Source: a virus
Taxonomy: Duplodnaviria; Heunggongvirae; Uroviricota; Caudoviricetes
Length of the DNA stretch: 10,708 nt
Reading direction: 5' to 3' (one strand)
IMG/VR virus record: IMGVR_UViG_2585427768_000002
Coordinates: 1 to 10,708 of that record
Below the pieces are notes generated by a model, which worked only from the letters and a program-made list of their open reading frames with translations, was not told the origin of the DNA and made no database searches. Position numbers and translations under genes: made by a program. Below are positions 7,403-7,652 of this stretch, piece by piece (the first letter of the stretch is position 1; every line of letters begins with the position of its first letter).

Positions 7403-7478
7403 GGCCCTTTAGCTCAGTGGTGAGAGCGAGCGACTCATAATCGCCAGGTCGCTGGTTCAAATCCAGCAAGGGCCACCA
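7403..7478 (+). tRNA. tRNA-Ile2 (anticodon CAU, lysidine type; ileZ-like of lambdoid prophages)
   Basis: Hand fold: 7-bp acceptor GGCCCTT/AAGGGCC, D-arm GCTC...GAGC, anticodon loop CTCATAA, perfect T-arm GCTGG-TTCAAAT-CCAGC, encoded CCA at 7476-7478. Near-identical in pattern to E. coli tRNA-Ile2 as recalled. Confidence 0.85.
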
Positions 7479-7485
7479 TCACATA

Positions 7486-7559
7486 CCGCCATTAGCTCAT
7501 CAGGAAAGAGCGCCAGCCTTCGAAGCTGGTTGCGCGGAGTTCGGGTCCCCGAAGGCGGT
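7486..7559 (+). tRNA. tRNA-Arg-like (anticodon UCG), atypical; possibly degenerate
   Basis: Hand fold: anticodon stem CCAGC/GCTGG with loop CTTCGAA; D-arm GCTC...GAGC. One acceptor mismatch (A6-A67), one T-stem mismatch, T-loop TTCGGGT, and no encoded CCA (TCA follows the discriminator). Confidence 0.5.
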
Positions 7560-7575
7560 TCATTATCTGTATCCT

Positions 7576-7652
7576 GCGTTGTTAGCTCAGCCGGACAGAG
7601 CAATTGCCTTCTAAGCAATCGGTCACTGGTTCGAATACAGTAGAACGCGCCA
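7576..7652 (+). tRNA. tRNA-Arg (anticodon UCU, reads AGA)
   Basis: Hand fold: anticodon stem ATTGC/GCAAT with loop CTTCTAA; T-loop TTCGAAT; encoded CCA at 7650-7652. One acceptor mismatch (G6-G67) and a G53-A61 T-stem mismatch. Confidence 0.7.

Follow-up and report, generated by a model that had tools for sequence, protein, structure and literature searches.

A cluster of three tRNA genes lies near an AT-rich anti-phage gene pair in an Escherichia coli prophage, and the locus raises the question whether these tRNAs supply rare codons to their neighbours and what is to be made of the irregular folds of two of them. The window, i.e. the whole stretch of DNA analysed (10,708 nucleotides), contains exactly three tRNA genes according to ARAGORN, all on the plus strand with the anticodons CAT, TCG and TCT. 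A first-pass annotation, made by hand folding, had placed tRNAs with anticodons CAU, UCG and UCU at positions 7403-7652, and both ARAGORN and the Rfam tRNA model agree with those folds. The Rfam scores are 72.5 bits for the first gene (ileZ), 43.4 bits for the second (argN) and 53.4 bits for the third (argO), all above the gathering score of 29, and the E-values of 1e-14, 1e-6 and 2e-9 are far beyond chance. Identical DNA in RefSeq is annotated by PGAP as tRNA-Ile, tRNA-Arg and tRNA-Arg. The names ileZ, argN and argO were taken from database annotations; no paper using them was found in open-access full text.

Features of the tRNA operon and its surroundings in the window
Feature	Positions	Strand	Evidence
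Q antiterminator gene, upstream boundary of the late region	3319..3690	+	Pfam Phage_antitermQ 3e-47; RefSeq 'antiterminator Q family protein'
AT-rich two-gene anti-phage cargo DS-1: 391-aa YejK-like nucleoid-associated protein and 404-aa partner	3670..6062	-	
Sigma-70-type promoter, TTGATT - 17 nt - TATTAT	7364..7392	+	consensus scan; predicted
ileZ, tRNA-Ile2 type, anticodon CAU, CCA encoded, intact	7403..7478	+	ARAGORN, Rfam, PGAP
argN, tRNA-Arg(UCG), damaged allele	7485..7562 (ARAGORN 7485-7561; tRNA body 7486-7559)	+	
argO, tRNA-Arg(UCU), damaged allele, CCA encoded	7576..7652	+	ARAGORN, Rfam
Intrinsic terminator, GGCTCGC-TTTT-GCGGGCT and T8	7667..7692	+	terminator scan; predicted
nanS-p-type SASA esterase gene, first large late gene downstream	8141..10102	+	Pfam DUF1737/SASA/DUF6645; RefSeq

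As judged from gene order and sequence, the cluster is the ileZ-argN-argO tRNA operon of lambdoid (Stx-type) E. coli prophages. Annotated ileZ, argN and argO genes in 311 phage records, mostly Stx-converting, agree with the window in order, anticodons and sequence. Identity to the Stx2a phage records annotated in this way is 93-95%, and ileZ2-argN2-argO2 of the Sakai prophage Sp5 aligns to the window cluster without large gaps. The order CAU-UCG-UCU, adjacent and on one strand, is present in 103 of 123 pattern-selected copies, which comprise 120 IMG/VR loci among the matches listed, two database loci and the window itself. Because E. coli is clonally over-sampled in IMG/VR, the frequencies from this source are rough and are not population estimates. 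Knowledge of the cluster goes back to the earliest genomes of Stx phages, and recognising it here adds nothing new. The finding is an ordinary one: ileZ is intact, and both Arg tRNAs are minority alleles with structure-breaking mutations.

The assignment of the CAU tRNA to the Ile2 type was borne out. ARAGORN labels ileZ as Met on the anticodon alone, PGAP gives the isotype as tRNA-Ile, and the gene is identical to K-12 ileX at 68 of 76 positions. The CAU anticodon, anticodon arm positions 28-42, the pairs C4-G69 and C5-G68 and the encoded CCA are common to both genes, and the eight substitutions include a compensatory change from C6-G67 in ileX to U6-A67 in the window. The product is presumably lysidine-modified at C34 and would then read AUA. 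A mismatch in ileZ itself, A27.C43, had been overlooked in the first-pass annotation; it is marked in the cmscan alignment, takes the place of a G27.U43 wobble in K-12 ileX and is invariant in the family copies sampled. The window gene is identical to ileZ2 of Sp5, and in 2,776 of 3,068 E. coli records the best ileZ copy is at least 99% identical to the window allele, with up to 12 ileZ places per genome. In the same alignment with Sp5, argN and argO differ from their counterparts at damaging sites.

The mismatches at pair 6-67 and in the T stem that had been reported for both Arg tRNAs are marked in the cmscan alignments, and the middle tRNA does lack an encoded CCA and a canonical T-loop. 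In argN the non-standard pairs are A6.A67 in the acceptor stem and A52.C62 in the T stem. The T-loop UUCGGGU carries G58 at a position that is a conserved A in the Rfam consensus; A58 is present in 85 of 113 family argN copies among the matches listed. The discriminator U73 is followed by UCA (7560-7562) in place of the CCA that argO and ileZ both encode; among the matches listed, the argN 3' end reads CCA in 104 of 113 copies and UCA in 8. Relative to the consensus and to Sp5 argN2 the window allele has the changes G52A, A58G, U67A and C74U, in addition to neutral D-loop sites. Canonical argN alleles have a fully paired 7-bp acceptor stem and a fully paired 5-bp T stem and score 56.0 bits in Rfam, 12.6 bits above the window allele. 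The cloverleaf energy is -20.0 kcal/mol compared with -28.3/-31.3 kcal/mol (8-11 kcal/mol less stable), and the predicted minimum-energy fold lacks the T arm. Measured against a canonical elongator tRNA, argN is therefore without fully paired acceptor and T stems, A58 and an encoded CCA. The last of these is not disabling alone, as E. coli has a CCA-adding enzyme and CCA-less tRNAs of phage T4 get matured. The suspicion that the middle tRNA may be degenerate is supported by the lowered Rfam score and the destabilised cloverleaf.

That suspicion had been confined to argN, and in this respect it fell short, since argO is damaged too. Exactly two differences, C61A and C67G, separate argO from the consensus and Sp5, and each breaks a pair, giving G6.G67 in the acceptor stem and G53.A61 in the T stem. 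The Rfam score is 16.7 bits lower than the 70.1 bits of the canonical allele, and the cloverleaf is 6.4 kcal/mol less stable (-15.6 compared with -22.0 kcal/mol). Two canonical features are thereby missing from argO, the pair G53-C61 and complete pairing of the acceptor stem. Both A58 and C61, the positions hit in the two genes, are written in upper case, i.e. as highly conserved, in the Rfam consensus. A20 in the D loop and C35, which are identity elements for ArgRS in E. coli, are present in argN and argO alike. ARAGORN, Rfam and PGAP still call both genes tRNA-Arg and not pseudogenes. That argO was copied recently from host argU (dnaY) was considered and rejected. The two agree in the anticodon and in all 7 nt of the anticodon loop, and A20, G73 and CCA are present; on the other hand, only about 57 of 77 positions are common, which indicates a distinct lineage, and the window argO adds G6.G67 and G53.A61.

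The description of the Arg tRNAs as atypical holds for the window alleles and not for argN and argO in general, of which the common alleles, including those of Sp5, are canonical. The family consensus has A58, G53-C61 and an encoded CCA, and the majority alleles as well as Sp5 argN2 and argO2 form clean cloverleaves. In an argN-anchored IMG/VR sample, 83 of 113 argN and 93 of 110 argO copies among the matches listed have no non-standard pair. Common polymorphisms of both genes fall in loops or exchange G-C for G-U, and a compensatory swap of C-G to G-C occurs in the argO T stem. The full window haplotype was found in 3 of 120 IMG/VR loci among the matches listed, and at 99% identity or more in 52 of 3,073 E. 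coli records. Strains that carry exactly this haplotype include FORC_069, NCCP 13905 and O104:H4 strains. Intermediates exist among the matches listed: in 12 loci three of the argN changes occur together with an intact CCA and a normal argO, and 2 further loci combine the three argN changes with UCA. The window haplotype is a rare and the most derived one, with four changes in argN and two in argO that are predicted to be damaging. The odd folds of the Arg tRNAs are to be corrected accordingly, from a feature of the family to a damaged haplotype specific to one lineage. Probably, then, the window holds a copy of the ileZ-argN-argO operon in which ileZ is intact and the Arg tRNAs are derived and under relaxed selection, with a predicted partial or complete loss of function. 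With 2 and 6 substitutions only, the excess of disruptive hits is statistically indistinguishable from random mutation; it fits neutral decay and does not prove it. The parallel purine-purine mismatches at 6-67 may also have been selected for an altered or non-translational function, though nothing supports this.

The operon has its own predicted signals. The promoter ends 9-10 nt upstream of ileZ (10 nt in the window), and the pattern TTGNNN-N17-TATTAT precedes ileZ in 189 of 192 IMG/VR copies among the matches listed, over 43 different upstream sequences. In the family alignment TTG and TTATTAT are invariant and the flanks divergent. A 'pS tRNA promoter' has been named for Stx2 phages (PMC2858043). 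The terminator hairpin has seven pairs, five of them G-C, and is followed by a T-run; among the matches listed, 98 of 135 IMG/VR copies have this hairpin with its T-run after argO. We infer that the tRNA operon is a separate transcription unit with a conserved predicted promoter and terminator. It lies between Q and the nanS-p and lysis genes; in the matching genome, holin and lysozyme are found farther downstream. The slot that stx would occupy, between the tRNAs and nanS-p, is empty, and an STnc100-type sRNA and nanS-p come directly after the cluster. The prophage carrying the operon is lambda-like and stx-negative, and it is apparently intact. Since the prophage of the matching genome is otherwise complete from integrase through tail fibre, the Arg tRNAs seem to be dispensable for the phage.

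The slots around the cluster are mosaic, with an AraC gene here and a DNA methyltransferase elsewhere, or DS-1 here and a CPBP protease elsewhere. Together with a chimeric argN/argO fusion seen in some loci, this mosaicism would suit the view that the tRNA genes have no translational role and are passive markers or recombination substrates, relics of host DNA captured with the stx region. For Stx phages, Zuppi et al. (2020; PMC7366253) read the tRNA genes as markers of the region that ancestral phages had captured. This explanation is nevertheless improbable for the window operon. The near-invariance of ileZ over thousands of copies and the retention of its promoter indicate purifying selection on an expressed gene. 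The polymorphism of canonical argN and argO spares the stems and includes the compensatory swap. Finally, argO is no recent copy of argU, and the eight differences of ileZ from ileX include a compensatory pair.

The loss of Arg tRNAs is not confined to the window lineage. In strain LS4 argN is scrambled and uncalled, and in strain EC22 ileZ alone is left. The LS4-type argN folds with a 3-nt loop in place of the anticodon loop; that it could be an intron-containing or otherwise odd tRNA was rejected, as relaxed ARAGORN searches with and without introns found nothing. Some other prophages have a truncated argO, and ileZ stays nearly invariant. Of 79 loci in a sample anchored on ileZ, 44 had calls for both Arg tRNAs, 20 for argO alone and 4 for neither. 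Complete E. coli genomes contain 7,527 ileZ places, 6,223 argO places and at most 5,066 argN-like places, the last count being an upper bound because blastn also catches unrelated tRNAs at 80-82% identity. Blastn was used since a canonical argN query of 77 nt gives too low a count in megablast, one major allele having no 28-nt exact word in common with it. The three-change argN allele is frequent (39 of 148 copies in a sample of the matches listed), and it may be tolerated, or else just of recent origin and over-represented through clonal sampling. Faster further decay was not seen in this group, of which 79% are without extra hits compared with 83% of the canonical copies, so a stepwise accelerated decay is not demonstrated.

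That ileZ remains near-invariant while argN and, less often, argO decay is a hint that decoding of ATA by ileZ is the selected function in lysogens. A more speculative and rather doubtful extension is that the operon is being reduced to ileZ alone, which would be kept as a lysogen-expressed AUA decoder for AT-rich acquired genes, argN and argO being dispensable and decaying repeatedly. If this were true, morons would be among the AT-rich genes helped by ileZ, and so would defence cargo like the DS-1 pair, in which ATA is the foremost of the enriched rare codons.

The cargo was identified as DS-1 by NCBIfam (DS1_1_antiphage, 451 bits; DS1_2_antiphage, 375 bits; both above cut-offs) and has a match to the Pfam domain NA37; PADLOC v2 gave no match for it. 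Its G+C content is 34-36%. The first-pass annotation had pointed to ATA as codon 3 of the 391-aa gene (ATG GAT ATA) and AGA as codon 9 of the 404-aa gene, both of which are found there, and had proposed that the tRNAs may support expression of the cargo and the late genes. Codon counts agree with part of this proposal. Compared with a 42-gene K-12 sample, the cargo is strongly enriched for ATA (30.3 compared with 2.4 per 1000 codons, odds ratio 12.8) and AGA (16.4 compared with 1.2 per 1000 codons, odds ratio 13.6), and the late genes are enriched 3.3-fold for AGA and 5.5-fold for AGG. The richness of the cargo in rare codons is, however, expected anyway of a gene with 35% G+C. ATA shows no significant enrichment in the late genes (p = 0.08), and CGA, the codon of the UCG tRNA, is enriched neither in the cargo (p = 0.28) nor in the late genes (p = 0.27).

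The genomic distribution does not tie the cluster to the cargo. Among 5,426 complete E. coli genomes, 2,578 have the tRNA cluster and 106 the DS-1 cargo, making the cluster about 25 times more widespread, and the cargo is absent from all of the approximately 120 cluster-bearing IMG/VR loci among the matches listed. With the cargo in just 106 genomes, the tRNAs are not there for its sake. A single operon of cargo and tRNAs was also rejected; the two are on opposite strands, 1.3 kb apart with two genes between them, and the tRNAs have a separate promoter and terminator. The cargo is probably an independent insertion that at most would benefit from ileZ. The damage falls on the two tRNAs that would serve AGA and CGA, which leaves the decoding of ATA by ileZ as the only plausible supply here.

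These observations bear on the view that all three tRNAs are functional and jointly supply ATA, AGA/AGG and CGA for cargo and late genes, their mismatches being tolerated. Besides the codon enrichments, it can draw on the fact that all three genes pass the tRNA callers, on the intact anticodon arms, A20 and C35, and on the frequency of the three-change argN allele. We regard it as unlikely, given that canonical alleles elsewhere have none of these mismatches, that few tRNA positions are better conserved in the Rfam consensus than G53-C61 and A58, and that the cloverleaves are destabilised by 6-11 kcal/mol. The unenriched CGA, the much commoner cluster that never occurs together with the cargo among the IMG/VR matches listed, and the position of the cargo on the opposite strand in a different unit also argue against it.

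Other phages have tRNAs that replace those cleaved by defence nucleases. By analogy, the window tRNAs might act in counter-defence, replacing host tRNAs cleaved or modified by tRNA-targeting toxins, with the alleles mutated in the acceptor stem and T arm as escape variants. In escape variants of phage tRNAs the changes typically lie in the anticodon loop, whereas argO has the very anticodon loop of host argU. In favour of this reading, the same pair 6-67 is hit in both Arg tRNAs, yet the changes wreck conserved structure and do not remodel a recognition surface. The neighbouring cargo belongs to a class that pairs a YejK-like protein with an effector; one type of this class has a toxSAS-family effector, and toxSAS can pyrophosphorylate tRNA (bioRxiv 10.64898/2026.04.06.716658). 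For the 404-aa partner, however, neither Pfam nor PADLOC gave a match and no toxSAS domain was recognised, and cluster and cargo are not associated. Counter-defence is thus a highly improbable role for the window tRNAs.

The preferred explanation, a copy of the known operon with an intact ileZ and decaying Arg tRNAs, would work as follows. The operon would be self-contained, with a sigma-70 promoter, three tRNAs separated by 7 and 13-16 nt, and an intrinsic terminator. It would be transcribed on its own and, after induction, also through readthrough of Q-modified polymerase coming from the late promoter. The transcript would be processed by RNase P and 3' nucleases of the host, and TilS would turn the ileZ product into a lysidine tRNA that is charged with isoleucine and decodes the rare AUA. 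Canonical argN (UCG) would read CGA/CGG and canonical argO (UCU) AGA/AGG. In the window lineage, pair 6-67 and one T-stem pair are predicted to be broken in both Arg tRNAs, with the near-universal G53-C61 lost in argO and A58 and the encoded CCA lost in argN. Relaxed selection would then have led to partial or complete loss of function of both Arg tRNAs in this prophage lineage. Annotation pipelines still call the damaged argN and argO as normal tRNA-Arg, and the result has a modest bearing on how prophage tRNAs help to express AT-rich foreign genes.

The closest known systems are the Stx phage clusters of 933W and Sakai Sp5, which have the same order, anticodons, spacing, promoter and terminator as the window and the same place, downstream of Q and upstream of nanS-p and the lysis genes. 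In Sp5 stx2AB directly follows argO2, whereas the window has no stx there. The window also differs from Sp5 in its Q gene and in what lies between Q and the tRNAs, here DS-1 and an AraC-type regulator. Unlike host ileX and ileY, ileZ is prophage-borne and multi-copy. Virulent phages such as T4 also have tRNA clusters for codons rare in the host, and some T4 tRNA genes have no encoded CCA and need host 3' processing and the CCA-adding enzyme. The window cluster, in contrast, is not known to be related in sequence to these clusters, belongs to a temperate lambdoid prophage and has three members only. Within the ileZ-argN-argO family, moreover, the CCA-less argN (8 of 113 copies among the matches listed) is a derived state and not a matter of design.

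ARAGORN reports exactly three tRNA genes in the whole window, all on the plus strand. The three tRNAs proposed for 7403-7652 in the first-pass annotation, with anticodons CAU, UCG and UCU, are confirmed by ARAGORN, Rfam and RefSeq, the RefSeq labels being those of identical DNA in other genomes. The trio is almost certainly the ileZ-argN-argO tRNA operon of lambdoid prophages. A megablast search with 7300-7950 matched 311 phage records, mostly Stx-converting phages, several of which name the trio ileZ, argN and argO. A prophage carried by 15 complete genomes, O104:H4 and Korean NCCP/FORC strains among them, is 99.9-100% identical to window positions 1152-10539. 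The matching prophage has integrase through tail fibre and looks intact, and its RefSeq annotation provided the gene order. Positions 1-1151 and 10540-10708 have no continuation in these 15 genomes, suggesting that the source prophage is a mosaic unrepresented in the complete-genome collection. At the left end, the minus strand carries a gene for an Ead/Ea22-like protein.

Features of the tRNA region and its surroundings (Rfam tRNA covariance model, gathering score 29 bits)
Feature	Position	Strand	Basis or remark
KilA-N and DUF968 genes	upstream of Q		RefSeq annotation
Q antiterminator	3319-3690	+	RefSeq annotation
Two-gene anti-phage cargo	3670-6062	-	RefSeq annotation, NCBIfam
65-aa gene	between cargo and AraC-family regulator gene		RefSeq annotation
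AraC-family regulator	6661-7374	+	RefSeq annotation
Sigma-70-type promoter, TTGATT-17 nt-TATTAT	7364-7392	+	ends 10 nt upstream of ileZ
ileZ	7403-7478	+	ARAGORN anticodon CAT; Rfam 72.5 bits; RefSeq tRNA-Ile
argN	7485-7561	+	ARAGORN anticodon TCG; Rfam 43.4 bits; RefSeq tRNA-Arg
argO	7576-7652	+	ARAGORN anticodon TCT; Rfam 53.4 bits; RefSeq tRNA-Arg
Terminator, G+C-rich hairpin and T8 tail	7667-7692	+	
STnc100-type sRNA	7728-7918	+	Rfam 140 bits
nanS-p, DUF1378, lysis genes	downstream of STnc100-type sRNA		RefSeq annotation

A promoter of the form TTGNNN-N17-TATTAT, ending 9-10 nt 5' of ileZ, is present in 189 of 192 IMG/VR copies among the matches listed, with 43 different upstream sequences, and the terminator lies 3' of argO in 98 of 135 such copies. 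The conservation of both is also visible in the cluster alignment A1, and a "pS tRNA promoter" is mentioned 5' of these tRNAs in O157 Stx2 phages (PMC2858043). Because promoter and terminator are conserved, the tRNAs appear to be a separate transcription unit within the late operon. In lysogens the operon would be transcribed from its own promoter; after induction, judging from how lambdoid late operons work, Q-modified polymerase would read through it. The tRNAs would then be released by RNase P and 3' nucleases.

The gene immediately 5' of the tRNA promoter, rich in ATA and AGG codons, encodes the 237-aa AraC-family regulator. Its best matches, YdeO and GadX, fall short of the NCBIfam cut-offs, and it is akin to the Psr/PatE-type acid-resistance/LEE regulators encoded by EHEC prophages. 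Its slot holds a DNA methyltransferase gene in other prophages (loci L001 and L123). The STnc100 match, located between the tRNA terminator and nanS-p, has its own terminator; related loci carry two tandem copies, and one of these loci has an adjoining match to AgvB, an anti-GcvB sRNA (loci L006, L014 and L124). On the opposite strand RefSeq overlays this match with a small "partial hypothetical protein" pseudogene, a call that is probably spurious.

In cmscan alignments, argN and argO each have a non-standard acceptor pair 6-67 and one non-standard T-stem pair. Read from the sequence, these are A6.A67 and A52.C62 in argN, in which the T-loop is UUCGGGU (G58) and the discriminator U73 is followed by UCA in place of CCA. 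In argO they are G6.G67 and G53.A61, and CCA is encoded. The earlier hand folds, with an acceptor and a T-stem mismatch in each Arg tRNA and an argN lacking encoded CCA and having an odd T-loop, were therefore accurate. Every ileZ copy compared shares an A27.C43 mismatch in the uppermost pair of the anticodon stem, where K-12 ileX forms a G27.U43 wobble.

The window alleles were compared with at least 120 IMG/VR loci obtained with an argN-based pattern. Among the matches listed, the argN consensus is CCGCCAU ... CGGGG-UUCGAGU-CCYCG-AUGGCGG-U-CCA, with 7/7 acceptor and 5/5 T-stem pairs standard, A58 and an encoded CCA, and the argO consensus is fully paired, with G53-C61. No non-standard pair occurs in 83 of 113 argN and 93 of 110 argO copies. 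Relative to these consensus sequences, the window argN carries G52A, A58G, U67A and C74U as well as two neutral variants in the D loop, and argO has two changes only, C61A and C67G, each pair-breaking. The full window haplotype was found in 3 of 120 IMG/VR loci among the matches listed. Intermediates with the three argN body changes and a normal argO were also found there, 12 loci with CCA intact and 2 with UCA. Of the 3,073 records with a match among complete E. coli genomes, 52 reach 99% identity or more to the window cluster. The argN2 and argO2 genes of prophage Sp5 in E. coli O157:H7 Sakai are canonical at the positions mutated in the window, and the window ileZ is the majority allele, identical to Sp5 ileZ2. 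The atypical Arg folds are thus a derived, rare haplotype and not a property of the family. Sp5 argO2 (locus L235, 2291-2367) has G for A at position 37, giving the anticodon loop CUUCUGA, a variant seen in about 6 of 110 IMG/VR argO copies among the matches listed.

Rfam scores argN at 43.4 bits in the window versus 56.0 for the canonical allele, and argO at 53.4 versus 70.1. The predicted loss of cloverleaf stability is 8-11 kcal/mol for argN and 6.4 kcal/mol for argO, and in the predicted minimum-energy fold of the window argN another hairpin replaces the T arm. Two of the altered positions, A58 and C61, stand in upper case in the Rfam consensus, which marks high conservation. On the other side, ARAGORN, Rfam and RefSeq all still report both genes as tRNA-Arg, and loss of the encoded CCA alone is not disabling in E. 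coli, whose CCA-adding enzyme can supply it and in which T4 tRNAs encoded without CCA are matured. On balance these predictions make impairment of the window Arg tRNAs fairly likely. The suspicion that argN is degenerate was right, and the degeneracy extends to argO. In the window prophage lineage, the two Arg tRNAs would be under relaxed selection and probably impaired, leaving ileZ as the effective product of the operon. TilS would lysidinylate ileZ, which would then read AUA. Canonical argO would read AGA/AGG and canonical argN would be a U34 reader for CGA/CGG; E. coli itself is not known to have such a reader.

Decay of the Arg genes is also seen elsewhere in the family. Strain E2855 has a normal argO and a damaged argN (42.9 bits). 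In strain LS4 unrelated sequence replaces the argN anticodon arm and no tool calls the gene. Strain EC22 has a scrambled argN and a truncated argO, leaving ileZ as the sole annotated tRNA of the cluster. An ileZ-anchored IMG/VR scan (first 80 loci listed, 79 usable) gave both Arg tRNAs in 44 loci, argO only in 20, neither in 4 and argN only in 2; in the remaining 9, ileZ is followed by a different cluster (Lys-Thr-Gly). Among the loci listed in an argO-anchored sample, ileZ is identical in 68 of 80 and has one mismatch in 7, and argN is fully clean in only 35. Across 5,426 complete genomes, ileZ occurs at 7,527 places in 3,057 genomes, argO at 6,223 places and argN-like sequences at 5,066 at most; the best ileZ copy is at least 99% identical to the window allele in 2,776 of 3,068 records. 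The samples have a clonal bias and the IMG/VR counts cover the matches listed, so the figures are rough; the order ileZ > argO > argN nevertheless holds in every sample. Common polymorphisms of canonical copies fall in loops or are G-C/G-U exchanges, and the argO T stem shows one compensatory C-G to G-C swap, which argues for structural constraint on the family as a whole. The copy comparison did not show faster further damage in the three-change argN allele than in canonical alleles.

The scrambled argN is widespread (loci L123, 2577-2676, and L124, 2577-2680, and about 20 IMG/VR loci, e.g. L128, L130 and L136). Its acceptor stem, D arm and T arm are retained, unrelated sequence takes the place of the anticodon arm, and no tRNA caller accepts it; PGAP labels a similar copy (database match H114) tRNA-OTHER. 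Loci L135 and L147 have a single chimera, in which the 5' half of argN is joined to the anticodon arm and 3' half of argO, as a deletion through recombination between the two Arg genes would produce. An otherwise clean argN in locus L139 has anticodon UCU for UCG. In the Lys-Thr-Gly clusters, Lys-UUU, Thr-UGU and Gly-UCC replace argN-argO 3' of an identical ileZ, also in E. coli genomes (matches H67 and H68); ileZ therefore appears to stand at the head of two or more types of cluster.

Support of cargo expression by the tRNAs had been suggested from codon usage. The cargo products, a 391-aa YejK-like nucleoid-associated protein and a 404-aa partner, match NCBIfam DS1_1_antiphage (also Pfam NA37) and DS1_2_antiphage; the partner had no match in Pfam or PADLOC. 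DefensePredictor lists a YejK nucleoid-associated domain with those for which a defence role was newly validated (PMC13092281), and PANGU is a related class comprising a YejK-like protein and an effector (bioRxiv 10.64898/2026.04.06.716658). The 391-aa gene does have ATA as its third codon, and the 404-aa gene has AGA as its ninth.

Codon frequencies per 1000 codons, from RefSeq gene coordinates
Gene set	ATA	AGA	AGG	CGA
42 K-12 core genes	2.4	1.2	0.7	2.6
DS-1 cargo	30.3	16.4	3.8	5.0
30 late genes	3.7	4.0	3.7	3.5
24 early genes	9.2	5.5	3.5	7.2

The anticipated codon enrichment of the cargo held for ATA and AGA. Relative to the K-12 core genes, CGA is enriched in neither the cargo nor the late genes, and the rise in ATA among the 30 late genes is not significant. 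The cargo enrichment is that expected of any 35% G+C gene. Cargo and tRNAs are not linked, since the tRNA cluster occurs in 2,578 and the cargo in 106 of the 5,426 complete E. coli genomes, no cluster-bearing IMG/VR locus among the matches listed has the cargo, E2855 has a CPBP-family protease gene in the slot after Q, and the window cargo lies on the opposite strand from the tRNAs, 1.3 kb away with two genes between. A functional tie is thus unsupported beyond shared codon bias.

The slot after Q looks like a variable defence/moron slot. The cargo converges on Q and overlaps its stop region by 21 nt, so that it separates Q from the conserved, probable late-promoter region starting at about 6110. 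Within 6110-6260, two terminator-like hairpins (6183-6198 and 6238-6259) come after a short sequence whose conservation extends to about 900 E. coli records. This region probably represents the late promoter, Q-utilisation region and tR' of the window's Q type, which the cargo has moved 2.4 kb away from Q.

In Sakai Sp5, ileZ2, argN2 and argO2 are located between Q and stx2A, whereas the window prophage has no stx and the slot directly after argO, filled in Sp5, is empty. The operon is a member of a well-known family and as such already known; the mildly new element is limited to the population pattern, in which ileZ is kept while argN, and less often argO, decays.
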